NCBI RefSeq assembly: GCF_023055435.1
Contig: NW_025963890.1
Span: 73,966,001-74,030,000, forward strand
Reading direction: 5' to 3'
Length of the DNA stretch: 64,000 nt
Source of the DNA: Haliotis rufescens
Taxonomy: Eukaryota
In this document: positions 169 to 45,100 of the stretch, piece after piece
Layout of the letters: each line of letters opens with the position of its first letter
Position numbering within the stretch: the stretch's first letter is position 1
Notes under the pieces: generated by a model
What the model was told of the DNA's origin: nothing
The model's input: only the letters and a program-made list of their open reading frames with translations
Databases searched by the model: none
Position numbers and translations under genes: made by a program

Positions 169-524
169 CGGATTACAGAGGCGATGCGACATGAATGCAG
201 ATGAATAATGTGTTTGGTTTGCATGGATCACTCAGCTGCCATCACTGTGTAATGTCCTGTAAATTCTATTTCACAATGATATTGCTGAAGGATAATGACA
301 TTGGAACAGTATCATGATTTGATCTGCTTTTAACAAGATATTTTTCCATTACTAACTTTGAAAACTGAAATCATTGGTGCATATTTCATCAAGAGAAGTT
401 GGTTTCAGATCTCCAAAAGCCAGGATTAAAGATTCTGAAATGCTTGAAACAACAGGGAACACGAAACGAAAATCCACTGGAATGAGACAGTTACGCTACA
501 GTGGCTCCCTCAGGTAAACCCAGA

Positions 525-3500: not shown

Positions 3501-3847
3501 GTAACAGTCCAGAACTCGTGCAGATCCAGGAAGCAGTGAGATATGTCAAGGAGCATAATCCTAAACTGCGTTCCTCCCGACTGACGACATACCACATCAG
3601 AACACTCATGTGGTGGCAGCTGTATGATCTTACAGCAGGGGAGCACGTATGGAGGCAGGAAACAATGGCTGCAAGATTCCAGGACTGTCTCCGGAAGTTC
3701 CAGAAGATGATGACAGGGGAGATAGTGGTGCCACACTTCTTCCTACCCCAGATCAAGAACATCTTACCGTGGATACCAGAAGAGGAGAGGGTATTTCTCT
3801 ATGTCATAGCAAAGGCAACTGAGGTTGTGTTCACACAAAAAAAATGA
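525..3847 (+). CDS. cGAS-like receptor (cGLR, Mab-21 NTase), copy A; exons 525-1820, 1972-2212, 2399-2632, 3348-3847 (~756 aa from ATG 525; true 5' end uncertain)
   Basis: GT-AG junctions join in phases 0,1,1. They give GSHFDGTK|VARPNEMD (cGAS GSYYEHVKISAPNEFD), SIDIDFVPSL (third catalytic Asp), WQVSFSYAEK (cGAS WRLSFSHIEK), TTYHIRTLMW (cGAS SSYHVKT) and VPHFFLPQIKNIL. The N-terminus is Lys/Ser-rich. Region 1240-1390 looks intron-like but is open in frame. Confidence 0.88.
2581..2880 (+). repeat. Three tandem ~100-bp copies of the cGLR-A exon 3 end plus its splice donor
   Basis: GCATCAATTAAGAAA...CACCGAAG.TCTGGTATCAAG|GTTAGTAATTAACGAT occurs three times, with donors at 2633, 2731 and 2835. 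Confidence 0.9.
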
Positions 3848-21127: not shown

Positions 21128-21890
21128 GTGTATCTCACTGACTCCTATCACAGTGTATCTCGCTTTGTTGATGATATCATACCATGCGTTCTGAGAGAAA
21201 TACAATAATATGTGTAGGACGTTAAGCTTGAATGTTGTTTTATGCCATAGTCATCACACCTGTCAATAATTGGGCCTTGGCAAGGCAAAGCAGTGACTGG
21301 AAAAGTGAACAACTCTCCACGTAATCGGATGGATAAATGGATGGATGGATATGGAATATTTATCAAGTTGCACTAATATTTTCAGTATCAGAATCCCGAA
21401 TTATACAACGTCTCATTCCATATCAGCACAATGATCACGATTGAATGAAAAGTAGTAACGGCTGAGTCATTTATAGAAAAACTGCAATTCATAAGAACGT
21501 TAGAGAACATTTAATACCCTCTCTCCGGCTTCCATAATGGGTAAAATATGTCTGTATTGACAGTGTCTGTTTGGCAGCTCGTAATAACGTACAGCATTCC
21601 TCTGGCAATACGTTACTGCATAAGAGAGGTGATGGTGTTATATAGCACGTAGCCGTGGAGGTTTAACAAGCAACAAAGGCGACACCTTGGATGAATTCAA
21701 GCGTTGAAAGCGAAAGAAGCCCTGACTGACGAATGTTCAGCTGGGTCAGTGATATACAACCATAAGAAGACATTACACAGTACACCTGAACGATCTGAGT
21801 GAGTGAGTATGGTTTTACGTCGCTTTTTTAAGACACAATGGATGAAGTAAATTGATTTTCATTTATCCTCTCTGTGTGGGTGATGAACAG

Positions 21891-21900
21891 GGGAATTTCC
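21891..21900 (+). promoter_or_regulatory. NF-kB consensus upstream of cGLR-B (same site at 29783-29792 upstream of cGLR-C)
   Basis: GGGAATTTCC ~0.8 kb upstream of each ATG. Confidence 0.45.
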
Positions 21901-22708
21901 ACGAAATATTGATTGACTGCTGTTGGCGGAACCTTTAAACGTGTTTGTACCTGGAAATATAAGGTGAAAAAATGCTGGTATTTCAGGTGAGCGTTGTATG
22001 TTTGTTTGTTATTGTACACATTAATCAGCAACATAGTAATTGGGTTGAATTCTGAATTGTCTGAAGTTATATTGCTGAAATGATTCCTTCTTTTAACTGA
22101 CCCGATCGTTATATTCTTGTCAACAGATCATGTTAGTCTCCTTTAGCGACAATCAATAGGGTGCTTGGGATGTATACTTACCTGGAGCAAAGTTTTAACA
22201 TTAGTTGGACGCACTTTATATTTAATAGTATGTCAGCCATATCACAGTGCCCGGTCACCCTTGTCTTCTCGTATGACAAGTAATAGTGTGCAGGGAACCT
22301 AATGAACCTGAGATCATAGATTGGTTAAACTTGCGATTTGAGTTTTGTAGGAATACATGTTAGGTATTACCCAAACCTATTTTTAGTGGCAGGTGACTGG
22401 CTTTATCTGTATGCTATTTCATAGAAGCGGAAATTGTGCTCCACTCAATTGTGCGGGTCGGTTGTGCAAGTGAGTCGGGGTTTCCGCTTGGGTTGGCAGT
22501 GTCAGGGCGAGGTAATTTAGCCAAGAGTTTTAAACTTTAACTATCAGATATGTTGTGATAAGCAGCAGACATCAACATCCAATCATCTGTATGCTACTTA
22601 CTATCTATTACCTGGTGTTATCATTTAGCTGTCAAGTTATAATGAGCCATTCAATGTTTATAAACTGTGATATTATTTATCAGTACACCACGGGGAGTTC
22701 TGGCCAAC

Positions 22709-25700
22709 ATGAGTGAGGTCTGCCCCCACTGCGGGGAGGGCTTTCAACGCCTTGCGTCTCACGAGTGGAGGTGCAAGGAGAAGGGAACAGCCGTCCCTGC
22801 TTCCTCCCGCCCCCAGTCTCGTTCATCTGGGAGGTCCAGTACAAAATCAGCCTCAGCAAGGAATAGTGCTGGGCGATATACCACACCATCAGCCTCAGTA
22901 GGGAAGAGTGCTGAGAGATCTACCACACCATCAGTCTCAGTAGGGAAGAGTGCTGAGCGATCTACCACACCATCAGCCTCAGTGGGGAATAGTGCTGAGA
23001 GATCTACCACACCATCAGTCTCAGTAGGGAAGAGTGCTGAGCGATCTACCACACCATCAGCCTCAGTGGGGAATAGTGCTGGGCGATATACTACACCATC
23101 AGCCTCAGTGGGGAAGAGTGCTAAGAGATCTACCAACTCATCAGCCTCAGCAGGGAAGAATGCTGAGAGATCTACCACCTCATCAGCCTCAGCGGGGAAG
23201 AGTGCTGAGAGATCTACCACCTCATCAGCCTCAGCAGGGAAGAGTGCTGGGCGATCAACCACATCATCAGCCTCAGCAGGGAAGAGTGCTGGGGGATCTA
23301 CCACACCATCAGCCTCAGCGGGGAAGAGTGCTGAGAGATCTACCACGCCATCAGCCTCAGCGGGGAAAAGTGCTGGGCGATCAACCACATCATCAGCCTC
23401 AGCGGGGAAGAGTGCTGGGGGATCTACCACACCATCAGCCTCAGCGGGGAAGAGTGCTGAGAGATCTACCACCTCATCAGCCTCAGCGGGGAAGAGTGCT
23501 GAGAGATCAACCACCTCATCAGCCTCAGCAGGGAAGAGTGCTGGGGGATCTACCACACCATCAACTTCAGCAGGTAACGGTGCTTGGCGATCTACCACGC
23601 CATCAGCCTCAGCGGGGAACATCGCTGGGCGATCTACCACACCATCAGCCTCAGCGGGGAACAGTGTTGGGCAATCTACCACACCATCAGCCTCAGCAGG
23701 TAAAGGTGCAGGTGCTGGGCCATCTACCACGCCATCAGCCTCAGCTGGGGGGAATAGTGCTGGGCGAACTACCACATCATCAGCCTCAGCGGGTAACACT
23801 GCAGGTGCAAGGAATGGCTACGTTTGTTCCAGAGATGCAGAAACAGAACAAACACAGATATGGGAAACTACTATTCAAACAACGCGCCCAAAGGACATAC
23901 CACAAAAGGACATCCTGGACACGTTGGAGATGGATGCATTGGTCAAAGAGATGGTAGAGAGAAACATCATTTGGAACTCTGACGATCCAAAAAAGGACAT
24001 CAAAAGGTTTTTTGAAAATGAAGTTAAGATGGAGCAGAGGGACATCCAGCCGGCGTTAGTGCACTTTAAGTGGTTGAGGGAAAAGATTGTTGGACGATTA
24101 AACAGTGAGATGAACTTTGGGACATGGAAGGTTTGCAATGCAGGGTCGCATTTCGATGGAACTAAGGTAAGAATATGATCATTGCAATATAAGGTTTTGT
24201 TTCCTAAAGTTATTACAAATCTTGTTTGTCATACATTTGGGAATTCTAATATTTTTAACACGTGACGTAAGAACACTGACATAAAAAAATAGATTTATGA
24301 GTCACATCCTTCTCCAGGTGGCTCGACCAAATGAAATGGACTGCACAATGTTCCCAATTCTTCAGACCAAACTTGAGGCTGTGTTTGATGACACCTGCGA
24401 AGCTGGAACCTGCAAGGTGAAGGTCGTCGGTGTCGTGGATGACCACGAAAAGGATCTCGAGCTATTCCTTGATGGAGGCTATGTTAACTTTAAAAAGTTC
24501 AGGAAATACGTCTTTGAGAAACTTGAACGTGTTCTTGAGACTGATAGAAAGTTAAAGGGTTCGTTGATTTATGTTACATCTTCAAGTTCATAAATGTCTG
24601 TCAGTATGATGGACGGTTGTATAAATCTATTGTTTACGAGACGCAACATCAATTTATAAACTTGACACATTTGAGGCTGAGATCTCACTACAAGCAGGAA
24701 ACACATATCACTACAGACACGTTTTGTTACAGATGCTCGCAAGTTCAAAGATTCACAGTCTTTTGCAGTCAGGTATGAGGGTATTGCATCTGAGGAAGGG
24801 ATGAAAAGTATTGACATTGACTTTGTGCCATCCTTAAACATTAAACCCTGGCCTAGAAAGAACGTTTCCCGGGACATTGAAGACATCCTCCCGGACAAAG
24901 CTAAAGCTGCATCCATTAAGGAAAACGGATTCAATGTAACACCGAAGCAACAGAATCAAGGTAAGTATTTATGTGCTGAAACATATTTATGCTTCACTAA
25001 ACGTTCAAGGGAGGCGACTGTCTTTCCGTCGAGAGAAAGTACACTTTTTCAGGTGCGTCATTATGTGCTGACGTCATGACGCTGTTCAAATTAGCTCCCC
25101 ATGATCTAACGTATCATTGGAAAATCGTTCTTTCATTACTGTCAAGCAAGGTAGTGCATTGTGAAATAGTTCAAACGTGTCGAATTACTGGACATTATTC
25201 CCAAGGAAGAAATATAGCAAGATGATATGAGCTATCTCTTACGCCACAGGGTTATTCCATGCCACAGCAGCCACAAAGTTGCCCAAGGCGGGTGTTGGTG
25301 ACATTGGAATGTTATGACTGTGTCTGAACATAGGCATGACAGGTTATTGAAGAGCTTCATGACACCATGTAAACCTGTTGCTCAGCGTAGGGCATTTAGC
25401 CAAAATACTGCAGTCAAACAAAACGACCGCTGTTACTCTACCTCTGCCTCTGCCTTGTTCGTCCCATGGCGATATCATGCCCATATCACGCCCCTCGCCT
25501 TCGATTCACGTCGGTTGCGATATCATTAGTGAGTGAGTGAGTATGGGTTTACGCCGCTTTTAGCAATATTCCAGCAATATCACAGCGAGGGACACCAGAA
25601 ATGGGCTTCACACATTGTACCCATGTCGGGAATCGAACCCGGGTCTTTGGCATGAAGAGCGAACGCCTTAACCACTAGGCTACCCGACCGCCCGCGATAT

Positions 25701-26939
25701 CATTAAGTGTAACCAACTCGGTAAGCACATTGTTTCATGACCTGCAGTTGCATGATTTGATTTAACTGTGTCCAATAAATATAACAACTTATTTATTATT
25801 GATAATCATATATTAACGGATAATAACTTATAAATTATAGTGGTGTTTTTATCATGTTTAAAATGTATACTTTTTCTCTTAACAATAGACTACAGGCAAT
25901 TAGGTGAAACAGAACCGGCAATTAGCCCTGTTCATGGATTTTCAATTTATGGTCCCGTGTATTGCGGATTTGATATTAAACCCATCTCCAATAAACATAA
26001 GATTATTCAGCATCTAAGAAAACTGAAAAGGTTGGCTGTGCCCATGTATAGTCCTCCTGCTTTAAGTTGATGGTTCAGGGCAAAACTATACTTTATTACA
26101 CTGCGCAAACATTATTCCCTTTCTTTCTAATAGGAACCCTCCTACGGATAAAAGCCATTACTGAATGCCTGAAACTATAGTTTGCGAGGCAGAGTTGCGT
26201 CCCTTAGGCGTGCCCTAAACCAATGATCGAAGATTCGAATAACAGATTCGCCCTGGTAGTGTTTCTAGATCAGCGCCATAACTGGGCTCATGGGTCCTGC
26301 TTATTTTGGGCTTTCTTCTGCATCATGTTCACTTACTTAGACAGATATTAGGAATTGTTCATGGTCAACTGTTGAACTGTTTGTTTGGAACAGCAAATGT
26401 ACATATCCGATGAATTCCTTGAAACATTTTTTTTAAAAGGAAAATATCCAGACCTCCAGTGGCAAGTTTCCTTTTCCTATGCAGAGAAGGCCATCACCAA
26501 ACATGCTGACAAGATTTCTTGGAAACCGTCACTTAGAACATTGAAAAGAGTCTTGGAAATTGCAAACGGCAACAGTGATTGTTGTGCCAAGGGCAAGAGT
26601 CCAGAACTCGTGCAGATCCAGGAAGCAGTGAGATATGTCAAGGAGCATAATCCTAAACTGCGTTCCTCCCGACTGACGACATACCACATCAGAACACTTA
26701 TGTGGTGGCAGCTGTATGATCTTACAGCAGGGGAGCACGTTTGGAGGCAGGAAACAATGGCTGCAAGATTTCAGGACTGTCTCCGGAAGTTCCAGAAAAT
26801 GATGACAGGGGAGATAGTGGTGCCACACTTCTTCCTACCCCAGATCAAGAACATCTTACCGAGGATGCACAAGGAGGAGAGGGCATTTCTCTATGTCATA
26901 GCAAAGGCAACTGAGGTTGTGTTCACCAAAAAACAATGA
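22709..26939 (+). CDS. cGLR copy B; exons 22709-24166, 24318-24558, 24733-24960, 26440-26939 (808 aa): N-terminal C2HC finger + 14-aa S/T repeats + Mab-21 NTase
   Basis: MSEVCPHCGEGFQRLASHEWRC, then (SAGRSTTPSASAGK)n, then the same spliced NTase motifs as copy A. An acceptor lies at 22683, with a candidate upstream UTR donor GAG|GTAATT at 22512. Confidence 0.9.
22847..23800 (+). repeat. Coding 42-bp (14-aa) tandem repeat, ~23 units
   Basis: Unit approx. AGTGCTGGGCGATCTACCACACCATCAGCCTCAGCGGGGAAG. Confidence 0.92.
25528..25693 (-). mobile_element. SINE family A insertion present only in cGLR-B intron 3
   Basis: TSD GCGATATCATTA. The empty site is present in cGLR-C at ~33536-33548. Confidence 0.88.
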
Positions 26940-27139
26940 CGCTCAAACTTGACATTTCAAATCATTGGTAGGCCAAGGATATTTATTTGTCAATTCAACT
27001 TCAGAGTGAGTGAGTGGGGATGAGGGGTTGGCAGACGAGGAAATGGAATGGCATGGCATTGATATGTATGTGTTGTTGTTATATACCATCTCCCTGTATA
27101 TCATGTGAGCGTTAATATTGATACGCAACTTGTGTGATC

Positions 27140-27245
27140 ACTGGGAAAGTAGGAATAATACAGAGGGAGAAAATCAGCGAGAACAGTTGGACACTGGTTA
27201 CACCAGAAACTACAAAAGCTGCTGTTTCCACAAAATGGAGTGAAG
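27140..27245 (-). pseudogene. Remnant of the HECT-like gene's terminal exon (second copy ~35570-35675)
   Basis: DNA similar to ~6975-7045. It translates as LHFVETAAFVVSGVTSVQLFSLI versus LHIVETAASVVSGSTSVQLFSMI in the intact gene, with stops upstream in that frame. Confidence 0.6.
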
Positions 27246-28449
27246 AACAGTGAATTCTGTGTTGTTATCAGTCCAGATCATGCATGTATTTCGACTCGTC
27301 CTTTGGTATGAAACAGCCAGGGAAACGAACCATTACCCTTAGGCAGTGTAGGACGACTGATGCCAAAGGACAATGGCCAAATTGCAACACATGAAGCATG
27401 GATTGGAATGATCTCAATGTCGTGGCTGGCGCCTGGCGACAGGCGTTTTGTGTGTGGAAATGAGACACTCTCAGGCTCCTGTCGGCCAACAGGGGAGATA
27501 ACTAGTGGATATTAAACCAACTTCAGACAGGGTGGACAGGGATGCATAACTAGAAGACCTTGCTGGACACTAAAACATTCAGGTAATCCTGGGAATGATA
27601 TTACAAATCCCTGTCTCAAAGATTAGCCATAACCCTAAATACAATCAAGGAAGGACATTCTTTTGTTTGCAGACAGTATTTAAGGCAAGTGGAAATAGTG
27701 TAGCAGTGACGTTTTCACGTTATATTTTGTTATACAAATTTTTTTTGTTCGTGTTATACAGTTTTGTTGGCAACAGTATTATTCGTGGTATTCTCTTTGC
27801 CTGATCTTTGTCTGGCCCAGGTTAATGAATATGTATAGCACGTGAATTTCATGTTAGTGAGAATCTTAGTTATAATAAAGAGTATTTTGATTGGCTGATG
27901 TGATCGTCTGGTCCAATAAAATTGTACCTCGTGGTTTCGTATGGCTGGTTAAGTGAAATTGTACCTCGTGGTTTCGTACGGCTGGTTCAATGAAATTGCA
28001 TTTTGAGAGGTACACATGTGCAGTCTTACAGAGACGAAGAGTTGCTTTGTCTTATAGACGGGGTATTAAAAACCCTTCACGTCTCGTAAAAATAAACGGA
28101 TTCACGACCTCATAGCAAGTCGTGTTTTGCTCGGCGCTATCCAACTGTTACATTAATACCATGTGGATTCTCAAAAACCTGAAGCATTTGCTTGAAGGTT
28201 TGCAATCTCAGTACAGAATCAGATTCATTTCTGTCAAAACATTTGAGTTTTCAACTTTGTACACACCATCCCCCATGACAAACCTAAGAAAAAGCTTCAT
28301 TCCTCGGGACACTTGGTACTAAAGCGGTGACCATACATATTGTTTCATAGATATACGAGTTTCAGGGCATTTGCCAAAAATGAAAGCAGATTTCATCTGA
28401 AGTGGAATAAAAAAACATGATACCTCCCGTAACAGTATCATGGCTGTAT

Positions 28450-28715
28450 TGAGTGAGTGAGTGAGTTGGGTTTCACGCCGCTTTTAACAGTATTCCAGTC
28501 ATATCACGGCGTGTCAGCTTAATGTGGGAGGAAAGCCCGAAGTGGTGCAGGTCTCAGACGTTTACCACTTCGGTGAAAACCACGAGCACGGGTATGGTGC
28601 TGACAAACCTAGAAACATAAACATGGGTGAACCACGATTCGAACCAATAATCATTGGGACGCAACTCTGCACAGCGAATCGCGGCGCCTTAGACGACTGG
28701 GCCACCCCTGCTCCC
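28450..28715 (-). mobile_element. SINE family C; other copies at ~36930-37210 (-), 38140-38420 (+), 51620-51900 (-), 55110-55325 (+), 58495-58780 (-)
   Basis: Head GGTGGCCCAGTCGTCTAAGGCG...GGTTCGAATC; body GATTCGCTGTGCAGAGTTGCGTCCC...CAGCACCATACCCGTGCTCGTGG; (ACTC)n tail. Confidence 0.75.
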
Positions 28716-29545
28716 CATGGCTGCATTGTCTTTGTTTGACAACACGTAGGCTATAGTCCGTTTTCTTATGACATTAACATACAGCATATATTGCGTAATC
28801 CTATTACCCACTGTCATCTTGTGCACCATTATTGTGTTGCGTGAACGTTGTTGCAATATTTGCAGTAGTTATTGAATACATTCTGGTTACACGTATGGTG
28901 TCATTTGTTGATGATATCATACCATGCGTTCTGAGAGAAATACAATAATATGTGTAGGACGTTAAGCATGAATGTTGTTTTATGCCATAGTCATCACACC
29001 AGTCAATAATCGGGCCTTGGCAAGGCAAAGCAGTGACTGGAAACATGGCCAACGGTCCACGTTATCGGATGGATGGATGGATGGATGGATGGATAAGGAA
29101 CATTTGTCAAGTTACACTAACATTTTCAGTATCAGAATCCCGAATTATACAACGTCTCATTCCATATCAGCACAGTGATCACGATTAAATGAAAAGTAGT
29201 AACGGCTACCAATGAGTCATTCATAGAAAAACTGCAATTCATAAGAACGTTAGAGAACATTTAATACCCTCTCTCCGGCTTCCATAATGGGTAAAGTATG
29301 TCTGTATTGACAGTGTCTATTTGGCAGCTCGTAATAACGTTCAGCATTCCTCTGGCCATACGTTACTGCATAAGAGAGCTGATAGTGTTATATAGCACGT
29401 AGCATTGGAGGTTTACCAAGCAACAAAGGCGACACCTTGGATGAATTCAAGCGTTGAAAGCGAAAGTAGCCCTGACTGACGAATGTTCAGCTGGGTCAGT
29501 GATATACAACCATAAGAAGACATTACACAGTACACCTGAACGATC

Positions 29546-29710
29546 TGAGTGAGTGAGTATGGTTTTACGTCGCTTTTAGCAATATTCCAGCAATATCAAG
29601 ACGGGGGACCCCAGAAATGGGCTTCACACATCGTACCCATGTCGGGAATCGAACCCGGGTCTTCGGCGTCACGAGAGAATGCTTTAACCACTAGGCTACC
29701 CGACCGCCCC
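29546..29710 (-). mobile_element. SINE family A with TSD; only a ~30-bp stub remains at the paralogous site 21796-21828
   Basis: Flanked by CTGAACGATCTGA direct repeats. Confidence 0.88.
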
Positions 29711-30606
29711 TGAACGATCTGAAGACACAATGGATGAAGTAAATTGATTTTTATTTATCCTCTCTGTGTGGGTGATGAACAGGGGAATTTCCACGAAATA
29801 TTGATTGACTGCTGTTGGCGGAACCATTAAACGTGTTTGTACCTGGAAATGTAAGGTGAAACAACTGCTGGCATTTTAGGTGAGCGTTGTATGTTGTTTG
29901 TTATTGTACACATTAATCAGCAACATAGTAATTGGGTTGAATTCTGAATTGTCTGAAGTTATATTGCTGAAATGATTCCTTCTTTTAACTGACCCGATCG
30001 TTATATTCTTGTCAACAGATCATGTTAGTCTCCTTTAGCGACAATCAATAGGGTGCTTGGGATGTATACTTACCTGGAGCATAGTTCTAACATTAGTTGG
30101 ACGCACTTTATATTTATTAGTATGTCAGCCATATCACAGAGCCTGGTCACCCTTGTCTTCTCGTATGACAAGTAATAGTGTGCAGGGAACCTGATGAACC
30201 TGGGTCAGAGATCATAGATTGGTTAAACTTGCGATTTGAGTTTTGTAGGAATACATGTTAGGTATTACCAAAACCTATTTTTAGTGGCAAGTGACTGGCT
30301 ATATCTGTATGCTATTTCATAGAAGCGGAAATTTTGCTCCACTCCATTGTGCGGGTCGGTTGTGCAAGTGAGTCGGGGTTTCCGCTGGGGTTGGCAGTGT
30401 CAGGGCAAGGTAATTTAGCCAAGAGTTTAAAATTTTAACTATCAGATATGTTGTGATAAGCAGCAGACATCAACATCCAATCATCTGTATGCTACTTACT
30501 ATCTATTACCTGGTGTTATCATTTAGCTGTCAAGTTATAATGAGCCATTCAATGTTTATAAACTGTGATATTATTTATCAGTACACCACGGGGAGTTCTG
30601 GCCAAC

Positions 30607-33600
30607 ATGAGTAAGGTCTGCCCCCACTGCGGGAAGGGCTTTCAACGCCTTGCGTCTCACGAGTGGAGGTGCAAGGAGAAGGGAACAGCCGTCCCTGCTT
30701 CCTCCGTCCCCCAGTCTCGTTCATCTGGGAGCTCAAGTACAAAATCAGCCTCAGCAAGGAAAAGTCCTGGGCGATCTACCACACCATCAGCCTCAGTAGG
30801 GAATAGTGCTGGGAGAACTACCACACCATCAGCCTCAGCAGGGAGGAGTGCTGAGCGATCTACCACGCCATCAGCCTCAGAAGGGAAGAGTGCTGGGCGA
30901 TCTACCACACCATCAGCCTCAGCAGGGAAGAGTGCTGGTCGATCAATCACGCCATCTGCCTCAGCAGGGAATAGTGCTGGACGATCTTCCACGCCATCAG
31001 CCTCAGCGGGGAAGAGTGCTGGGCGATCAACCACACCATCAGCCTCAGCGGGGAACAGTGTTGGGCGATCTGCCACGCCATCATCCTCAGCAGGTAAAGG
31101 TGCTGGGCGATCTACCACACCATCAGCCTCAGCAGGGAACAGTTCTGGGCGATCTACCACACCATCAGCTTCATCGGGGAAAAGTGCTGGGCGATCTACC
31201 ATACCATCAGCCTCAGCGGGGAAGAGTGCTGGGCGATCTACCACACCATCAGCCTCAGCTGGGAACAGTGCTGGGCAATCTACCACACCATCAGCCTCAG
31301 TGGGGAATAGTGCTGGGAGAACTACCACACCATCAGCCTCAGCGGGGAAAAGAGCTTGGCGATCTACCACACCATCAGCCTCAGTGGGGAATAGTGCTGG
31401 GAGAACTACCACACCATCAGCCTCAGCGGGGAGGAGTGCTGAGCGATCTACCACGCCATCAGCCTCAGAAGGGAAGAGTGCTGGGCGATCAACCACACCA
31501 TCAGCCTCAGCAGGGAAGAGTGCTGGGCGATCAATCACGCCATCTGCCTCAGCAGGGAATAGTGCTCGACGATCTACCACACCATCAGCCTCAGCAGGGA
31601 AGAGTGCTGGGCGATCAACCACACCATCAGCCTCAGCGGGGAACAGTGCTGGGCGATCTACCACGCCATCATCCTCAGCAGGGAACAGTTCTGGGCGATC
31701 TACCACACCATCAGCTTCATCGGGGAAGAGTGCTGGGCGATCTACCATACCATCAGCCTCAGCGGGGAACATCGCTGGGCGATCTACCACACCATCAGTC
31801 TCAGCAGGTGAAGGTGCTGGGCGATCTACCACACCATCAGCCTTAACGGGGAAAAGTGCTAAGCAATCTACCACACCATCAGCCTCAGTGGGTACCATTG
31901 CAGGTGCTTGGCGTTCCGATGATGCAACAAGGAATGGCTACGTTTGTTCCACAGACTCAGAAACAGAATTCACAGAGATATGGGAGATGGATGCATTGGT
32001 CAAAGAGATGGTCGAGAGAAACATCATTCGGAACTCTGACAATCCAAAAAAGAACATCAAAAGGTTTTTTGAAAATGAAGTTAAGATGGAGCAGAAGGAC
32101 ATCCAGCAGGCGTTGGTGCACTTTAAATGGTTGAGGGAAAGGATTGTAGGACAACTAAACAGTGGGATGAACTTTGGAACATGGAAGGCTTGCAATGCAG
32201 GGTCGCATTTCGATGGAACTAAGGTAAGAATATGATCATTGCAATATAAGTTTTTGTTTCCTAAAGTTATTACAAATATTGTTTGTCGTACATTTGGGAA
32301 TTCTAATATTTTTAACACGTGACGTAAGAACACTGACATAAAAAATTAGATTTATGAGTCACATCCTTCTACAGGTGGCTCGACCAAATGAAATGGACTG
32401 CACAATGTTCCCAATTCTTCAGACCAAACTTGAGGCTGTGTTTGATGACACCTGCGAAGTTGGAACCTGCAAGGTGAAGGTCGTCGGTGTCGTGGATGAC
32501 CACGAGGAGGATCTCCGGCTATTCCTTGATGGAGGCTTTGTTAACTCTAAAAAGTTCAGGATATACGTCTTTGAGAAGCTTGAACGAGTTCTTGAGACAG
32601 ATAGAAAGTTAAAGGGTTCGTTGATTTCTGTCACATCTTCAAATTCATAAATGTCTTTCAGTATGATGTACGGTTGTATAAATCTATTGTTTACAAGACG
32701 CAACATCAATTTATAAACTTGACACATTTGAGGCTGAGATCTAACTACAAGCAGGAAACACAAATCACTACAGATACGTTTTGTTTCAGGTGCACGCAAG
32801 TTCAAAGATTCACAGTCTTTTGCAGTCAAGTATGAGGGTATTCCATCTGAGGAAGGGATGAAAAGTATTGACATTGACTTTGTGCCATCCTTAAACATTA
32901 AACCCTGGCCTAGAAAGAACGTTTCCCGGGACATTGAAGACATCCTCCCGGACCAAGCTAAAGCTGCATCCATTAAGGAAAACGGATTCAATGTAACACC
33001 GAAGCAACAGAATCAAGGCAAGTATTTATGTGCTGAAACATATTTATGCTTCACTAAACGTTCAAGGAAGGCGACTGTCTTTCCGTCGAGAGAAAGTACA
33101 CTTTTTCAGGTGCGTCATTATGTGCTGACGTCATGACGCTGTTCAAATTACCTCCCCATGATCTAACGTATCATTGGAAAATCGTTCTTTCATTACTGTC
33201 AAGCAAGGTAGTGCATTGTGAAATAGTTCAAACGTGTCGAATTACTGGGCATTATTCCCAAGGAAGAAATAAGGCAAGCTGATATGAGCTATCTCTCACG
33301 CCACAGGGTTATTCTATGCCACAGCAGCCACAGCAGCCACAATGTTACGACTGTCTGAACATAGGCATGACAGGTTATTGAAGAGCTTAATGACACCATG
33401 TAAACCTGTTGCTCAGCGTAGGGCATTTAGCCAAAATACTGCAATCAAACAAAACGACCGCTGTTGCTCTACCTCTGCCTCTGCCTTGTTCGTCCCATGG
33501 CGATATCACGCCCCTCGCCTTCGATTCACGTCGGTTGCGATATCATTAAGTGTAACCAACTCGGTAAGCACATTGTTTCATGACATGCAGTTGCATGATT

Positions 33601-35375
33601 TGATTTAACTGTGTCCAATTAATATAACAATTTACTTGTTATTGATTATCATATATTGACGGATAATAACATGAGACTTATCAATTTTTGTGGTGTTTTT
33701 ATCATGTTTAAAATGTATACTTTGTCTCTGAACAATAGGCTGCAGGAAATAAGGTGAAACAGAACCGGCACTTAGCCCTGTTAATGGATTTTCAATTTAT
33801 GGCCCCCGTGTATTGCGGATTTGATATTAAACCCATCTCCAATAAAACATAAGATTATTCAGCATCTAAGAAAGCTAAAAAGGTTGGCTGTGCCCGTGTG
33901 TAGCCCTCCTGCTTTAACTGTTTTGTTCAGGGCAAAACCATACTTTATTACACTGAGCAAACATCATTCCCTTTCTTTCTAAGAGGAACCCTCCTACAGA
34001 TAATAGCCACTACTGAGTGCCTAAAGTACTCACGGAAATGAAAAACACAATAACTGTTTTTTCGATCTCAGATTTTAAATAAATGCAGTTAATATACAAA
34101 ATATATAAATATTCAAACAACTCAATTAGTACTAATTGGGCCTTGGTACAAATACCGCGTATCAAAGGTATGAACAAAACAGACTGTTGTGAAACTGAGC
34201 ATAACCAGGTGTTAGTAGATCAAGGTGAATGTCCATGACATATGACACCTTGACGACAGGTGAAAACAGGTGCTTGAAACCCACGTGCATGGGATTTGCC
34301 AGTGGTTAGTGATTTGTGAGTGGCATTGTGGGATAGTGAATCATCGTCCAGATATCAGAACGTACAAGTAATATATTCCCTTCTCAAACAACAACTTACA
34401 TGTCATTATTATTATGTACATAAACATAGCTGTTATTTTTATTGTTGTTTTGATAACTTTTATTCAAGGCTAATTTGCATAATGCCTATAGCCTGTTTCT
34501 GCCATGTCAATTTGTTTTGTTATTTCGTATTTCCATCTACGTAATGCTTTGTGTCGATTATTAAATCCAGCAAAACAGGGTTTTTTTCATTTCCATGAGT
34601 ACTTTAATACTTTAGTTTGCAATGCAGAGTTGCGTCCCTTAGGCGTGCCTGAAACCAATGATCGAAGATTTGAATAACAGATTCGCCCTGGTAGTGTTTC
34701 TAGATCAGCGCCATAACTGGGCTCATGGGTCTTGCCTATTTTGGGCTTTCTTCTGCATCATATACACTAACGTAGACAGAAAATAGGAATTGTTCATGGT
34801 CAGCATTTGAACTCTTTGCTTTGAACAGCAAATGTACATATCTGATGAATTCCATTAAATATTTTCTTTTAAAAGGAAACGATCCAGACCTCCTGTGGCA
34901 AGTTTCCTTTTCCTATGCAGAGAAGGCCATCACTAAACATGCTGATAAGATTTCTTGGAAACCGTCACTTAGAACATGGAAAAGAGTCTTGGAAATTGCA
35001 AAAGGCAACAGTGATTGTTGTGCCAAGGGGAACAGTCCAGAACTCGTGCAGATCCAGGAAGCAGTGAGATATGTCAAGGAGCATAATCCTAAACTGCGTT
35101 CCTCCCGACTGACGACATACCACATCAGAACACTCATGTGGTGGCAGCTGTATGGTCTAACAGCAGGGGAGCACGTTTGGAGGCAGGAAACAATGGCTAC
35201 AAGATTTCAGGACTGTCTCCGGAAATTCCAGAAAATGATGGCAGGGGAGATAGTGGTTCCACACTTCTTCCTACCCCAGATCAAGAACATCTTACCGAGG
35301 ATGCACAAGGAGGAGAGGGCATTTCTCTATGTCATAGCAAAGGCAACTGAGGTTGTGTTCACCAAAAAACAATGA
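30607..35375 (+). CDS. cGLR copy C; exons 30607-32223, 32375-32615, 32790-33017, 34876-35375 (861 aa); intron 3 has a GC donor
   Basis: MSKVCPHCGKGFQRLASHEWRC plus ~27 14-aa repeats and intact NTase motifs. The donor is AAG|GCAAGT at 33018, where copy B has AAG|GTAAGT. Confidence 0.85.
30745..31900 (+). repeat. Coding 42-bp (14-aa) tandem repeat, ~27 units
   Basis: Same unit as in copy B, with different copy number and variant order. Confidence 0.92.
34023..34605. mobile_element. MITE present only in cGLR-C intron 3
   Basis: TIRs AAAGTACTCACGGAAATGAAAAA / TTTTTCATTTCCATGAGTACTTT. Absent at the paralogous site (~26170) in copy B. Confidence 0.8.
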
Positions 35376-38300
35376 CGCTCAAACTTGACATTCTTGGTAG
35401 GCCAAGGATATTTATTTGTCAATTCAACTTCAGAGTGAGTGAGTTGGGATGAGGGGTTGGCAGACGAGGAAATGGAATGGCATGGCATTGATATGTATGT
35501 GTTGTTGTTATATACCATCTCCCTGTATATCATGTGAGCGTTAATATTGATACGCTGCTTGTGTGATCACTGGGAAAGTAGGAATAAAACAGAGGGAGAA
35601 AATCAGCGAGAACAGTTGGACACTGGTTACACCAGAAACTACAAAAGCTGCTGTTTCCACAAAATGGAGTGAAGAACAGTGAATTCTGTGTTGTTATCAG
35701 TCCAGATCATGCATGTATTTCGACTCGTCCTTTGGTATGAAGCAGCCAGGGAAACGAACCATTACCCTTAGGCAGTGTAGGACGACTGATGCCAAAGGAC
35801 AATGGCCAAATTGCAACACATGAAGCATGGATTGGAATGATCTCAATGTCGTGGCTGGCGCCTGGCGACAGGCGTTTTGTGTGTGGAAATGAGACACTCT
35901 CAGGCTCCTGTCGGCCAACAGGGGAGATAACTACTGGATATTAAACCAACTTCAGACAGGGTGGACAGGGATGCATAACTAGAAGAACTTGCTGGACATA
36001 CTAAAACATTCAGGTAATCCTGGGAATGATATTAGAAATCCCTGTCACAAAGATTAGCCATGACCCTAAATACAATCAAGGAAGGACATTGTTTTGTTTG
36101 CAGACAGTATTTGAGGCAAGTGGAAATAGTGTAGCAGTGACGTTTTCACGTTATATTTGGTTATACAATAAAAAAAAAAATTGTTCGTGTTATACAGTTT
36201 TGTTGGCAACAGTATTATTCGTGGTATTCTCTTTGCCTGATCTTTGTCTGGCCCAGGTTAATGAATATGTATAGCACGTGAATTTCATGTTAGTGAGAAT
36301 CTTAGTTATAATAAAGAGTATTTTAATTGGCTGATGTGATCGTCTGGTCCAATAAAATTGTACCTCGTGGTTTCGTACGGCTGGTTAAGTGAAATTGTAC
36401 CTCGTGGTTTCGTACGGCTGGTTCAATGAAATTGCATTTTGAGAGGTAAACGTGTGAGGTTGAACACAAGAGTGGTCACCGGGTATAACGTGTTAGTTTG
36501 CAGTCTTACAGACACGAAGAGTTGCTTTGTCTTATAGACGGGGTATTAAAAAGGCTTCACGTCTCGTAAAAATAAACGGATTCACACCCTCAGAGCAAGT
36601 CGTGATTTGCTCGGCGCTTTCCAACTGTTACATTAATACCATGTGGATTCTCAAAAACCTGAAGTATTTGCTTGAAGTTTTGCAATCTCAGTATAGAATC
36701 AGATTCAATTCTGTCAAAACATTTGAGTTTTCAACTTTGTACACACCATCCCCCATGACAAACCTAAGAAAAAGCTTCATTCCTGGGGACACTTGGTACT
36801 AACGCGGTGACCATACATATTGTTTCATAGATATACGAGTTTCAGGGCATTTGCCAAAAATGAAAGCAGATTTCATCTGAAGTGGAATCAACAAACATGT
36901 TACCTCACGTAACAGTATCATGGCTGCATTGAGTGAGTGAGTGAGTTGGGTTTCACGCCGCTTTTAACAGTATTCCAGTCATATCACGGCGTGTCAGCTT
37001 AATGTGGGAGGAAAGCCCGAAGTGGTGCAGGTCTCAGACGTTTACCACTTCGGTGAAAACCACGAGCACGGGTATGGTGCTGAAAAACCTAGGAACATAA
37101 TCGGGGCGAACCAGATTCGAACCAATAATCATAGGTTTCTGGCGTGCCCAAGGGACGCAACTCTGCACAGCGAATCGCGGCGCCTTAGACGACTGGGCCA
37201 CCCCTGCTCCCCATGGCTGCATTGTCTTTGTTTGACAACACGTAGGCTATAGTCCGTTTTCTTATGACATTAACATACAGCATATATTGTGTAATCCTAT
37301 TACCCACTGTCATCTTGTGCACCATTATTGTGTTGCGTGAACGTTGTTGCAATATTTGCAGTAGTTATTGAATACATTCTGGTTACACGTATGGTGTCAT
37401 ATGTTCTCGTTATTACTTCAATGTCATATGCAAAGTATAACGAGAAATTTTTGACCAACTGGTTTGTTTGTTTGTTTGTTGTTTAACGCCGCACTCAGCA
37501 ATATTCCATCGATATTGTAAATAATCGAGTTTGGACCAGACAATCCGGTCATTGACAGACATCATGAACATCGATCCACACACTCGGCATACGATGACAT
37601 GCATGAACCAAGTCAGCGAGCCTGACCACCCCATCTCGTAATTGTACTGCAGTCCTAAATAATAGATTAAGGACTATGGGATTTACATTTCATTTCATAA
37701 GCAAGCTAAATATATAGACAGTATTTTCATAATTATATGCGTTATATTTAAGATGTTTCTTAAAATTTAAAATATTAACATGTAAATTTTGTGGTTGATA
37801 TTTCATAGTTTCACCATAAGCTGGACAAATAAACGTGAAATGAAATTCTTCTATACCGATTTAAGATAATGGACATATTCTCAGTGATTTTTTGTCACCT
37901 ACCTTCGTTTATTTTGAAACGTAGTAGCCCTGTTCTTTTTGTATCTAATATTTTTCGAAATTTGAAGTCAACGATAACATTAAGGTATTTCTCGGGTGCA
38001 AGCAACGTCTTACATTCCTTATAAAAAAAACTATACCTTGGACTACCTTTGAGATCCGATCTCTAATTCTGATTTTTTTTAAATGTATTGTACGTTTCTT
38101 AAATATATTAATGAAATATACGGGATTTCCAACAGTCTGTGGGGACACGGGTGGCCAAGGCGTCTAAGGCGCCGCGATTCGCTGTGCAGCGTTGCGTCCC
38201 TTGGGCACGCTAGAAACCTATGCTTGTGGGTTCGAATCCCGGTTCGCCCCGATTATGTTTCTAGGTTTGTCAGCACCATACCAGTGCTCATGGGTTTCAT

Positions 38301-39139: not shown

Positions 39140-42100
39140 TTATGAGTATCGGTCAGTGCTTCTAGAAAACAGGATTTCCGTGGCCCTGACCAAGATGTAC
39201 ATGAACTCCCTGTCCCTCCACCGCACTGTACTCATCATGTCCCCGACTGCAGGCAGGAAGAAGTGGGGCACCCTCATCTCGCCAGTCAACATTTTCTTGA
39301 GTTTGCCCAGAGAGAAGTGCAACCTGCTCTCTCGAGTATCCTCCCTCCACACATGGCTCCCGGCGGTGAGGTCGTACAGCAACGTCCACATCAAGGTCCT
39401 AATGTGGTAGGTTGTGAAACATAACCGGAACGAGTCGTCTCTGAAGTAATGTTTTCTTGTGTGTTGGGCTACTTCATGAATCATCTCGGACTTTCCTGTG
39501 ACCATGAGCCCCTTTTGTCCTTTGGCAATCTCCATTACTCTTTTGATTGTTCGGAGGATAGGCTTCCAGCTTTCGGTGTCACCATGTAAAGTGAGGTTCT
39601 TCTCAGCGAGGGAGAAGGACATCTGCCACTGCAGACGGTCTGGTTGGTCACCTGAAACAGATACCATGGTGATGACCAGGGCCCACTTGCACAATGCGAT
39701 CATAGCGCTAAGATGATCTTAACACCATACTTTAACAAAGGGTTACAATAGTCTCAGCGCCAAGATCGTTTTGCGCAAGCGGGCCCTGAACATTAGTGGT
39801 TCAACCAGGTCAGTGGGATATCATGCAAATGAACATATGAGACATAATGCAAATGAACATATGAGACATCATGCAAATGAACATATGAGACATCATGCAA
39901 ATGAACATATGAGACATCATGCAAATGAACATATGTGAGACATCATGCAAATGAACATATGAGACATCATGCAAATGAACATATGAGACATCATGCAAAT
40001 GAACATATGAGACATCATGCAAATGAACATATGTGAGACATCATGCAAATGAACATATGAGAGACATAATGCAAATGAACATATGAGACATCATGCAAAT
40101 GAACAAATGAGACACATCATGCAAATGAACATATGTGAGACATCATGCAAATGAACATATGAGAGACATCATGCAAATGAACATATGAGATTCATCATGC
40201 AAATGAACATATGTGAGACATCATGCAAATGAACATATGAGAGACATCATGCAAATGAACATATGTGAGACATCATGCAAATGAACATATGAGAGACATC
40301 ATGAAAATGAACATATGTGAGACATCATGCAAATGAACATATCAGAGACATTATCCACTTGGCATATTCAAATAAAATTTTACTCAAGAATGACTGCGAG
40401 GTCCTTACCAGGGCAGCGCTTTGTTGTTATGTTGAAACCTTTTTCCATGATGTCAGTGACGTTGATTGAAGGGGATATGCCCTTGGGTAGGGTTTTTTTC
40501 AGATCCCGAGCAATCAACGGCTGTGGCCAGTGTGGGATGTTGAGGGCTGGAACGATGTCAACATCGATGTCAAGGGTGCCGTGGTAGGTAGTGGTGCCAG
40601 TGTAGGTGATGCCGAATGATGGGGATCCAGCATGTGTTTTGTTCTCTGTCAGAAAAATCCAGGGTAGAATTGGTCTTCAGCAACCCATGCTTGCCGTTAC
40701 TGGCGACTATGCTTGTCGGAGGAGGCGACTAACTGGATCGGGTTTAGGCTCGCTGACTTGGTTGATGCATGTCACCGTATACCAATTGCGTGGATCGATG
40801 CTCATTGCGTCAATCACTGGATTGTCTGGTCCAGACTCGATTGTTTACAGACCGCCGTCATATAGCTGGAATATTGCTGAGTGCGGCGTTAAACAACATA
40901 TTGACAAACAAACAAAACTGTGAGAAAGCAATGTACTCAATGCAGGTGTCAATGACGAAATAATTACTTATGCAAGCAAAAAACAATGCATTGAAAAAGA
41001 TGTCACTTAATGTTGACAAGTCTTTACCCAGGATTTAATATTGAAGGACTGAACAATGGGCCTTTTGGATACAGAAAGTGTTGTTTCTTTTGTTTTGTTA
41101 CCATTGACAACGCTGTAAGAATCTACATCGAAACTTCGCTAAATGCAGTAAAACGGAAGTTGTTGTCCATAACATTGTACTTTTTCTTACTTACTCACCA
41201 ACTTCTAGATTGCAAATATTACTTACCCCTACATTTGGAATTGTGGCGTATATATTTGTCCATCAGTTCAAAGAAGAAATTCCGATATTTCTCAGCGTTG
41301 ATGAAGCTGTTGTCGCATAAATAGTTTAAAGATGGTGATGCATTTACCACTCTGACTTTGCAATAGCCAGGATGGCAGTCCTCGTACACGGGTTGAAGAT
41401 CGGAATCAACTTTCGGAATGAATAAACAATCCATTTCGTTAGGCCGGGACACCTTAAAATAAGACAACTGTGGGGTTGGCCGTGTGGATATAGGTAGACA
41501 TATAAGTATAAAGAGATCCCTGAGAGTCGGATTTTATCGAATTTCTTTTTTGTCCCAAGCCATTTCATTTCATAAGGTCGGGACAGCTTTAAAACAAGAG
41601 ACAACTGTGGGATTGGTTGTATGGATATAAGAAAACAAATACTTAAAATATAAAGAGATCATTTACAGTTGGATTTTATCGAATAATTGTCCCTGAAAAT
41701 TCTTGGAAAATATAATTACATTGTTGCAAATATTTTCTTTTTAATAAAAATACATTCAAGCTCATGCCTCTCAAAGTCCGGCGGTCGTCGTTGTCCTTGG
41801 TCTTCACGTATTGAGAATTGTTGACCCTAAAATTTTAATTCTCTTGCCGTTCAATAGCACACTTTTGGCATGTATTGATTTGATGGCTGTTTGCTACCTT
41901 CTTCGTGTATTGAAGAAGTTTTTGTTACTTCGACTTTCACGCATTAGCCGGATTACCTGGCTCTTGTTGAAATTTCTCTTGCATTTTTGGTCATTTTTGG
42001 CACCTCAATAATACATAGTATTAGTACATATCTGGTTGTAAATCTTTAGTGGTACTGTTGGGTAGCGTATGTTCAGCGCTATATTTTGGTACTTACATGT

Positions 42101-45100
42101 TCCATATTGGTTCAATAGTTAGTTTGCTATTCGGGTTTTCCTATGCCTACCCCCTGCTGACCAGGAATGGCTGTTCTCTACGACGTGCACGCATACGGGT
42201 TTAAACCTTGTCTTTACCTCCAGGCATCGCTAGACCGTTTACCAGTCGTCTTGCTACTGGTTTGCTCAGGTCGAAACTTCGTTAGTAAGTCATTATGGGG
42301 AGGTATCTCTCTCTGGGAGTCAGGTTACTCTTTTGGTCAAGTACCTATTGACTATTGGGAGTCAGGTTACTCTTTTGGTCAAGTACCTATTGACTATTGG
42401 GAGTCAGGTTACTCTTTTGGTCAAGTACCTATTGACTATTGGGAGTCAGGTTACTCTTTTGGTCAAGAACCTATTGACTATTGGGAGTCAGGTTACTCTT
42501 TTGGTCAAGAACCTATTGACTATTGGGAGTCAGGTTACTCTTTTGGTCAAGTACCTATTGACTATTGGGAGTCAGGTTACTCTTTTGGTCAAGAACCTAT
42601 TGACTATTGGGAGTCAGGTTACTCTTTTGGTCAAGAACCTATTGACTATTGGGAGTCAGGTTACTCTTTTGGTCAAGAACCTATTGACTACTGGGAGTCA
42701 GGTTACTCTTTTGGTCAAGAACCTATTGACTATTGGGTGTCAGGTTACTCTTTTGGTCAAGAACCTATTGACTATTGGGAGTCAGGTTACTCTTTTGGTC
42801 AAGAACCTATTGACTATTGGGAGTCAGGTTACTCTTTTGGTCAAGAACCTATTGACTATTGGGTGTCAGGTTACTCTTTTGGTCAAGTACCTATTGAATA
42901 TAAGGAGTCAGGTTACAAGTACCTTTTTAATTATTATGAGTCAAGAGACTCCATAGGTCAAGTACCTTATAGTTTCGGGAAGTAGAATTTCCTTGCCCAG
43001 TTAAAGTGACAGAGTCTTCAGTTCTCTTTGCCATTAACTTGTAAAATTGTTGATTTAGCTTCTTCTTAATTACTCTATTACAGTTGCTTAGTTAATCAGC
43101 TTGTGTATTTGTTCTGATTTAAATAGTCAGCGATCACTGTCAGTGTAAATTGGGTTTTTGATCCTTTATATTGTCGTCTATTGATACAATTTGCTGATTA
43201 TAATAAACCTGTGAACCTATCATCACGTTTTCCTTATAACGTTATAAATGTTTTTATACACCCTGGTCTCTGGGGCAGAGCTCCGTGAGAGTAAGGTACA
43301 ATTTTCAGTAAGTGGTTATTTTATGTAATACCAATACTACTTTAACTTACACCAAGAATAATTCCAGCACACATGATAGACACGGGTTATAATATACTGA
43401 ACCGCAAAAGAAACGTCACCATGGGTACATATATGAGAAACCTTATTTGTGTCCAAACACTGTACACATACTTTCAGACATATTAAAAAAATGAAACTTG
43501 ACAAAACTGATCATAAAGGTTGAAATTGAAGTGTCAAATGTTCTAAAGTGAAACACAGCACAAGTCTCTGAGAAAATCGCATTACAAGTCAGTATCTCGT
43601 GTGTCAGCCATGTGCATTGATGACTGCCGTGCAACGTCGATACATGGAATGGATGAGGCTGTTGATGAAGGCCATAGGGACTTGAACCCACACTCTGAGG
43701 AACGCATGACGCAATTCAGCTGCAGTTGTCGGCCTTGGTCGGACGTCATTCAGCCGTCTGTGAATCTCGTCCCGCAGGAGCACAATGTGATTTAAATGGG
43801 GACTGAGGGCAGGCCACTGCATGGTTCTGATGCCATTCTGCTGGAGGAAGTCTCTTGTTGCTCTCGCAGTGTTGGCACGGGCGTTATCATGCTGAAACTC
43901 GTGGTTGTGGCGACGTGCCAAATGAGGTATGGCGTGTGGACTTGATCAGTGTACCGAACTGCTGTGACACTATTGCCTCTCCCTGGACCGATGTTCTGGA
44001 AGACCACAGGGCCGACGCTCTGTGCAAGACCAATCCCACTCCACACCAAGATGCTCAGGCCACCCTACGAGTCTCTCTCCACAACACAAGCATCCGAATA
44101 ACATTCCCCATGGCGTCGCCAGATTCACTCTCTCTGCCATCTGCTGTTGAGATACAGTAACGGCTCTCGCCTGAGAAGAGGACACTTCTCCACTGCTGGT
44201 GGCGCTAATGCTAGTGCTGTGTTGCCCACTGAAGACGATCCCAGCGATGACGTGGTGTCAGGATGGGTCCTCGGTGTGGCCTGTAATAGCGGAGGTGTCT
44301 GCTCGTCAATCGTCGAGGCACGGTGTCCGCACTAATGTCTCGCTGGTGTGTCCCCATGGTCTGTCGAGCAGTTTCCGCAGCAGTAACAAAGCGATCTTGA
44401 AGATGCTGTCGCACAATCTGACGATCCTGTCGTCAGGTGGTGACCCTTGGTCTTCCACTATGTGGTCGGTCATCTGTAGTGTTGGTGGTCTGGTACCGTT
44501 GCTGGAGCCTGTATGTGGTCCTAATCGTCCAAGGGCTTGGTGTCGCTGATTTCTTGTCAATCTTGGCATGTGGTAGCAATTCAATAACGAATGAATGTAA
44601 TCCGATCAGAGTGGATTTTTATAGGGAAAGAAATGGGGGAACGGTTTTATTGTCATCTGCTTTGTTTTTTATCATCAAATTTCATTTTTCCGGACAAGGT
44701 AATGTTAAATTTTAGAAACTTTGACAAAAATTACCAGATATTTAAATGACAACGTTTCAATGTTACTTGGTGTGACGTTTCTTTTGCGGTTCAGTATATA
44801 TTCTACGTCCATATTATTGTATATACTTCTCCTGTACATACTCTTTGCGTTGTTTAATAATATAAAGAATGCACCCTCACCTTAGTTTTGTCATAATAAG
44901 AACCTCCTCGAAACGTTGTCCATTTCCAATGTGTCTTTGACTCGAGAAAGTCACAGATATTGTTCTGCAAGTTATTAAAAACTTCTGCCGTATTTTCGAT
45001 TTCATTTTGTTTAAGTGACACTTCATCCTCAAAAAACTTTGAAATTTCAGTTCTAGGATTTCTTGAATGTTCCAGTATTCCAGTATCGACCATGTTTCTA

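Follow-up and report, generated by a model that had tools for sequence, protein, structure and literature searches.

The 64,000-nucleotide stretch of the Haliotis rufescens genome analysed here (contig NW_025963890.1, positions 73,966,001 to 74,030,000 of the forward strand; hereafter the window) holds four genes for cGAS-like receptors (cGLRs), with A, B and C on the forward strand and D on the reverse strand. A search with the last exon of B located six related genes in a span of about 190 kb on the contig. Our analysis concerns the N-terminal arm of B and C, in which a short zinc finger and a linker precede an array of 42-bp units and the start of the nucleotidyltransferase (NTase) core (Table 1).

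Table 1. Features of the cGLR cluster, in window coordinates
Feature	Position	Strand	Basis or remark
Paralogue A, later exons	523..3847	+	finger exon with proto-units at L003:1501-2058, ~9.3 kb before the window
Tandem duplication of a ~8-kb unit giving B and C	21164..37405 (21164-28909, 28904-37405)	+	self-BLAST, 88-94% identity
B non-coding leader exon, 5' end unfixed; followed by intron 22512-22683	22444..22511	+	spliced contig of run X1, GT/AG ends
B first coding exon: finger, linker, repeat, start of NTase core	22709..24166	+	
B C-x2-C-x9-H-x3-C finger, predicted beta-beta-alpha	22721..22774	+	motif, AlphaFold2, dN/dS
B coding minisatellite, 22 units of 42 bp, two in-frame insertions, net charge +24	22865..23797	+	
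B coding exon 2, catalytic E492-M-D494	24318..24558	+	splice joint in contig
B coding exon 3, third catalytic Asp in IDIDFVP	24733..24960	+	contig joint to last exon
B last exon, Mab-21_C helical bundle	26440..26939	+	contig joint to exon 3
C first coding exon: finger, linker, repeat, start of core	30607..32223	+	
C finger, same motif	30619..30672	+	
C coding minisatellite, 27 units, net charge +37, block duplication at 14-unit offset	30763..31896	+	
C coding exons 2 and 3	32375-32615, 32790-33017	+	
C last exon	34876..35375	+	
Paralogue D, 7 tandem C-x2-C-x9-H-x2-C fingers (45259-45934)	39140..45960	-	

B and C are intact, transcribed, tandemly duplicated cGLR genes. Their duplicate units differ by 1-6% in flanks and introns, and the four-exon models give proteins of 808 amino acids for B and 861 for C, identical to the RefSeq Haliotis rufescens proteins P0013 and P0001, respectively. 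The third coding intron of C opens with GC (33018), and its counterpart in B with GT. Contigs of 5 of the 24 listed runs were aligned here, and were taken as RNA-derived from their joints across predicted introns. A 661-nt contig of run X1 begins within the B array, covers 23663-24164 and crosses into the next exon, and a 546-nt contig joins exons 3 and 4. On the leader side, a 274-nt contig of run X1 is spliced from the leader exon to the ATG, finger and first unit; it carries C's letter at 22736 and is therefore possibly a transcript of C. A 209-nt contig of run X4 matches B without mismatch in the region of the 5' leader, ATG, finger and first unit. Since spliced contigs enter the array from the leader side and leave it into the NTase exons, both array ends are exonic; the initial annotation had treated the repeat as coding, and at its ends it is indeed not spliced out. 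The contigs cover the array ends and leave the interior of B (22991-23662) uncovered. This gap, donor-like AGGTAA hexamers (two in the B array, one in that of C) and the 27-45 of 400 unselected simulated arrays that are free of stops would suit an intronic minisatellite that the gene models merely read through. Such an untranslated repeat is highly improbable, given the contigs that enter from both sides, the absence of a pyrimidine-tract splice acceptor within either array, and the descent of the unit from coding sequence of A, described below.

The cores carry the Pfam domains Mab-21 (53.9 and 55.3 bits for B and C) and Mab-21_C (36.9 and 35.6 bits; cut-off 24.1). The G[S/G] loop and the catalytic triad are kept in B as GS479-480, E492-M-D494 and IDIDFVP, and likewise in C. 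Held against the literal cGLR pattern, h[QT]GS X8-20 [DE]h[DE]h X50-90 h[DE]h, B and C show NAGS at the loop, and 97-99 residues precede the third acid. The pattern is not discriminating, because the proven oyster enzyme Cg-cGLR1 deviates at the same two points (KSGS, and 95-97 residues by hand count from the alignment). The best solved match of the core is oyster Cv-cGLR1 (8GJW), by sequence (E 4.8e-17) and as rank 1 in Foldseek (E 4e-9, template-modelling (TM) score 0.64 by target). Between B and C, the ratio of non-synonymous to synonymous substitution rates (dN/dS) of the core is 0.43-0.51 (p 0.006-0.036). The core isoelectric points (pI) are 9.1 and 9.2, and nucleic-acid-sensing cGLRs have a core pI above 8.5 (PMC9980059; papers are cited by such identifiers). 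Cg-cGLR1 and Cv-cGLR1 are activated by double-stranded DNA (dsDNA) and produce 2'3'-cUA (PMC9980059); by extrapolation from these oyster enzymes, B and C would also respond to dsDNA and make a cyclic dinucleotide. A STING domain was found in the genome, and STING in Haliotis rufescens is likewise stated in PMC11103948. B and C are absent from the three Haliotis rows of Table S1 in PMC9980059. Core trees place both cores outside the vertebrate cGAS clade. Vertebrate cGAS bears a zinc-thumb insertion with the motif H-x5-CC-x6-C. Among the fetched rows compared, this thumb is absent from B, C, D and Cg-cGLR1 and present in catshark, caecilian, loris and Myotis (one Cys changed). The composition-based database names for B and C, nucleoporin NSP1-like and serine-rich adhesin-like, are misleading.

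The finger reads CPHCG(E/K)GFQRLASHEWRC in B and C, with the C-x2-C-x9-H-x3-C spacing in both, as the initial annotation had described. A search with 30 residues revealed a third copy about 9.3 kb before the window, which is the first exon of A. Of the changes that separate A from B/C over the first 26 codons, 11 are synonymous and 3 non-synonymous (dN/dS 0.04, p 8e-7); the finger is inherited and under strong purifying selection, not new. What the initial annotation had missed is that the finger is the conserved part of the arm and is common to a mollusc-wide cGLR clade. A profile of 8 mussel fingers scores the B finger at 31 bits, and a profile of 23 fingers from outside A, B and C scores it at 24 bits; scores this high were reached by 0 of 1953 and 0 of 1914 ligand-keeping shuffles, respectively. 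The search with the B core returned 64 proteins, and N-termini were examined in 42, the remainder being four abalone proteins that the analysis already included and 18 that were fragments or matched over a short length. Other abalone cGLRs carry 1 to 11 short C-x2-C-x9-H-x2/3-C fingers. Such fingers are also present in two freshwater mussel proteins, one of which has six of the KRLASH type, and fingers of the C2H2 type are found in oyster, Mytilus and Solemya proteins. In a quick, midpoint-rooted tree of 32 cores, with rows chosen by position since a strict-motif version dropped 10 of 35 rows, one branch (Shimodaira-Hasegawa-like support, SH-aLRT, 96) splits 21 mollusc-type rows, all named ones being molluscs, from vertebrate cGAS and two others. 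N-terminal fingers are present in 17 of these 21 rows and in none of the 11 on the other side, 5 of which have fewer than 50 residues before the core. Cg-cGLR1 is one of the 17, and the construct that was screened started past its fingers and linker (PMC9980059, supplement 3). The domain table of that paper has no entry for C2H2, ZnF, zinc or C2HC.

AlphaFold2 predicts a beta-beta-alpha fold for the finger, with a mean predicted local distance difference test score (pLDDT) of 76.6. No family could be named for it by Pfam on the 30-mer, PDB sequence search, Atlas features or Foldseek; the Atlas rows for PF28519, considered for the C17orf80-type finger described below, score 188-190 and lie below the naming bar. 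Its neighbours among solved folds are weak, and 4 of 6 rows are ubiquitin-binding zinc fingers (UBZs), the nearest being those of RAD18, TAX1BP1 and Pol eta (Z 2.3-2.5, root-mean-square deviation 1.1-1.8, 26-29 aligned residues). The finger might accordingly be a protein-binding module, for ubiquitin or another partner, with the tether giving it reach for localisation, turnover or restraint, separate from nucleic-acid sensing. A single N-terminal CCHC finger of predicted beta-beta-alpha fold, on a chain predicted to be disordered, would fit such a role, and it shares its position and predicted fold with the UBZs of RAD18, WRNIP1, FAAP20 and Pol eta. The N-terminus of WRNIP1 is among the structure rows of the Atlas (TM 0.82 by query, again below the naming bar), and E19-W20 of the finger are conserved and exposed. 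We nevertheless regard this role as a minor possibility. The UBZ-like scores are weak and generic for a 26-residue fold, the B/C finger has a shorter spacing than UBZs, and the FAAP20-type DxHxAxCL motif (PMC4267625) is replaced by A-S-H-E-W-R-C-K in B and C, albeit other UBZ types use other residues. Moreover, the related fingers of the clade are lysine-rich, a better fit to nucleic acid, and the nucleoid-associated C17orf80 (MTNAP1) has an N-terminal CCHC finger of identical spacing on a mostly disordered chain (PMC10445727). The likeness to C17orf80 has its own bounds: its Atlas structure rows are under the naming bar (TM 0.68-0.72), it is a mitochondrial vertebrate protein without an NTase, and the target of its finger is itself unproven. 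When the finger was modelled in complex with zinc and the abalone's own ubiquitin, the score was 0.00, which gives no verdict and was not used either way.

The array has a period of 42 by repeat finder, with 22.4 copies at 22846-23793 in B and 27.3 at 30744-31888 in C, and its unit consensus is SAGRSTTPSASAGK. The initial annotation had counted about 23 and 27 units of 14 residues, close to the 22 and 27 whole units found here. It was also right that B is richer in acidic variants: SAERS occurs 8 times in B and twice in C, acidic residues number 9 and 5, and basic residues 33 and 42, respectively. There are no stops in the coding frame of either array. Since 42 bp equal 14 codons, whole-unit changes keep the frame automatically, and they are uninformative for the earlier claim that length changes are frame-keeping; that claim stands for the sub-unit events, namely the two insertions in B (+6 and +3) and a loss of 3 nt at 23746, carried by contigs from two of four runs (X4 and X10). 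An unrelated second 42-bp minisatellite lies in an intron of D (42314-42916), with two of six frames open, both on the forward strand; an open frame in a 42-mer array is therefore cheap. The opposite frame of the arrays is also free of stops; that it encodes a protein was rejected, support having been sought only in the frame listing and unit analysis.

On the comparison of units, the array is young and loosely constrained. The 47 standard units hold 48 distinct variants, of which 14 are synonymous and 34 non-synonymous against 39 and 81 possible, and no stop variant was seen against 2.3 expected. In simulations, purging stops alone matched the observed synonymous share in 21-29 of 400 runs. 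A constraint on frame only is thus not rejected, and the whole N-terminal arm could now be dispensable, with the array a passive minisatellite. The activity of core-only Cg-cGLR1 (PMC9980059, supplement 3) points the same way, as do P0026, a member of the same clade with no N-terminal extension, and the H. cracherodii model P0004, which lacks the finger. This neutral explanation is unlikely in view of the strong constraint on the finger over the older split of A from B/C, with none of its four ligands lost in B, C or the C types of H. cracherodii, and of the net basic charge that is the rule in the family. The spanning tree of the units also gives a dN/dS of 0.65-0.67 (p 0.03-0.04, uncalibrated; 5-7% after simulation).

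The arm of B and C is predicted to be disordered, with pLDDT below 50 for residues 26-400, and is net basic (+27 in B, +41 in C), as the initial annotation had expected. Net charge per residue before the core is +0.064 in B and +0.087 in C, against +0.054 to +0.18 in cGAS-like rows, and serine and threonine are far more abundant than in those rows. Fully extended, the chain would measure about 137-156 nm; coiled, it would span some 14-15 nm by a scaling law. Among relatives with N-termini of at least 100 residues, 25 of 30 are net basic, 4 negative and 1 zero, and 9 of the 30 contain internal tandem repeats, including the cGAS of catshark, Myotis and slow loris (models P0063, P0069 and P0077, the Myotis being M. 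daubentonii), whose N-termini are built from such repeats. A mucin-type secreted role was rejected, as the B/C protein begins directly with the finger (no signal-peptide predictor was run).

The initial annotation further proposed a possible phospho-rheostat or tether, pointing to periodic Arg and Lys and to many T-P and RxxT sites. Spelled out as a rheostat and condensate driver, periodic Arg and Lys residues would drive condensates with DNA, kinases acting at RxT, T-P and RxxTP sites would switch these off, and repeat number would set the threshold. A [R/K]x[S/T] site does recur at intervals of some 14 residues (22 sites in B and 27 in C), and human cGAS has mitotic sites about 13 residues apart, two of which fit [R/K]XpS (PMC8171060). 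The resemblance is not telling, because any tandem unit rich in serine and threonine gives such spacing, and amplification alone explains the periodicity. RxxTP survives in 22-23 units of C and of the C types of H. cracherodii, and the serine and threonine content of the array is borderline for drift (matched by 4-5% of simulations; a single feature out of seven, uncorrected). However, in two sets of neutral arrays simulated with a toy model from the consensus (35217 and 17026 arrays), 22-48% retain RxxTP, RxT and T-P at least as well, RxxTP persists in 9 units of B against 23 of C, T-P in 14 of 22 units of B, and the full cyclin-dependent kinase consensus occurs never in B and once in C. The arrays are nearly free of aromatic residues, and the basic N-termini of A-type genes, D and Cg-cGLR1 have no such array and 0-2 RxxTP. 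Site retention thus lies within neutral drift, in a test of little power on one recent array; it lends no support to a selected phospho-rheostat, which we consider unlikely.

The genome search found the unit of the array in B and C only (a lower bound). In an alignment of DNA, the first exon of A pairs with the finger, linker and about two degenerate units of B, and for this reason we trace the B/C array to A-like proto-units. On the search and this alignment, a transposon or dispersed-satellite origin of the unit was rejected, and the amplification from proto-units bears out the earlier view that the region arose independently of vertebrate cGAS. The complete A gene encodes the finger, the proto-units and two C-x2-C-x6-H-x2-C motifs; from this layout, the ancestor of B and C likely lost the two further Cys/His motifs and a long middle region and amplified the proto-unit. 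RefSeq model P0005 of A omits three upstream exons (L003:1501-2058, and about -7680 and -7297 relative to the window, in L004). These exons align in phase with P0018, a protein of 1011 residues from H. cracherodii, and the layout recurs in P0010 of H. asinina. A 98-bp triplication (2580-2882) spans the end of the third core exon of A and its donor. Repeat length differs between paralogues, as first noted, and also between species: the B/C types of H. cracherodii have 23, 24 and 26 units by a counter that scores B as 23 and C as 28. Among the annotated proteins of H. asinina and H. rubra that were examined, none has the array.

The first 45 codons of A and B are 22% different, and their copies of intron 1 are 4% different (1821-1971 in A, 24167-24317 in B, 32224-32374 in C); A and C differ by 0.7% in intron 1, and intron 2 differs by 9-11%. 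These values make recent gene conversion in the intron 1 region likely. Near-identical introns beside distant first codons suggest that the cores were homogenised by conversion while the first exons diverged. Within the cluster, unequal crossing-over probably lengthens the part of the first exon that happens to be repeated: in B and C this is the linker, in D the finger itself. The finger unit of D has 34 residues and is present in 7 copies here, 8 in H. cracherodii and 11 in H. rubra. Three open frames upstream of the window (L023:1465-2517, L024:1465-1878 and about -37240 from the window) encode D-like fingers followed by partly repeated sequence rich in proline and threonine; no Pfam family passed the cut-off for the one such frame tested.

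Elsewhere, two similar broken copies resembling long-terminal-repeat retroelements lie at about -53000 to -45000 and -29000 to -21000 from the window (L005-L009), with frames that we take by eye to be protease, reverse transcriptase, integrase and env-like. Within the window, the reverse-strand segments 13318-16515, 16768-17970, 8060-8671 and 43604-43945 presumably hold, again by eye, endonuclease and reverse transcriptase frames like those of long interspersed elements, an ORF1-like frame and fragments of a Tc1-like transposase. A short interspersed repeat of about 165 bp (25528-25693, with similar copies) has very high depth in the run contigs. A leucine-rich-repeat exon of a neighbouring gene lies at 54231-54986 on the reverse strand (Pfam LRR families).

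The closest known systems are the oyster enzymes Cg-cGLR1 (XP_011418942.2, Swiss-Prot P0DXB9) and Cv-cGLR1, which lie on the same side of the tree as B and C, include their best structural match, have a basic core, and likewise bear N-terminal zinc fingers and a basic linker, there with an internal duplication. The oyster fingers are of the C2H2 type, with longer spacing, and number two, or three in the 590-residue CgcGAS, in which they were proposed to aid nucleic-acid binding (PMC8218723), whereas B and C have one short CCHC finger and a linker that is an array of 22-27 units composed of Ser, Thr, Ala, Gly and Pro. The finger-plus-Mab-21 layout of oyster is thus already published; we found no paper on the abalone repeat or on a short finger in cGLRs, in a search that covers subscription journals little. 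The N-terminus of vertebrate cGAS (PMC8171060) is similarly disordered, net basic and rich in serine and threonine, and in some species repeat-expanded. That of B and C, known from sequence and prediction, differs in its independent origin, lower share of Lys and Arg, serine-plus-threonine fraction of about 0.38, the finger ahead of it and a core without a zinc-thumb.

We favour, with a probability of about 0.5, the reading that the array serves as a flexible tether, weakly basic and tolerant of changes in length, and aids accumulation of the enzyme on long foreign nucleic acid, most probably dsDNA. By analogy with Cg-cGLR1, the core alone would be activated by dsDNA and make a cyclic dinucleotide for STING; the finger and the basic chain would increase avidity towards long nucleic acid and lower the activation threshold, with the tether keeping the finger attached to the catalytic core. 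What selection would maintain in the repeat is its reading frame and overall composition, rather than single sites or an exact length. Relatives and paralogues with 23, 24, 26 and 28 units likely reflect this tolerance of length.

Several observations weigh against the tether. Since Cg-cGLR1 is activated by dsDNA without its fingers and linker, the N-terminal region is dispensable for activity in vitro, and the cores are only about 30% identical to the oyster enzymes, so that ligand and product are extrapolated. The net charge per unit, 1.25, falls short of the 1.7-1.8 reached by drift simulated from a consensus ending in Lys, a shortfall that is ambiguous because the proto-unit of A ends in Asn. 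B amplified units with a Gly-to-Glu change, unlike selection for charge. The share of Lys and Arg, 0.12, is below the 0.13-0.23 of cGAS-like rows, the finger of B has almost no net charge, and most of the solved folds that weakly resemble it are ubiquitin-binding fingers. A bolder extension, which we hold to be rather improbable, is that mollusc cGLRs possess a second sensing arm of CCHC or C2H2 fingers on disordered chains, of which abalone would tune reach (the B/C linker) and valency (the fingers of D, 7-11), so that variable numbers of tandem repeats would set a heritable threshold or ligand preference, with kinase control added in C.

To conclude, B and C are an instance of a wider mollusc design, in which a finger and a basic disordered chain precede a cGLR core and the first exon expands by tandem repeats. 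Given that the best-studied relative was assayed as a bare core, the N-terminal fingers that most members of the mollusc-type clade carry are a candidate part of invertebrate DNA sensing. Even if the repeat proves neutral, our findings correct the database names of these proteins and show how easily cGAS-like disordered regions are rebuilt. The abalone cluster provides a natural series on related cores, with no finger, one finger on a long tether, or 3, 4 and 7-11 fingers, which makes the role of the finger directly testable and bears on the antiviral immunity of a farmed animal.

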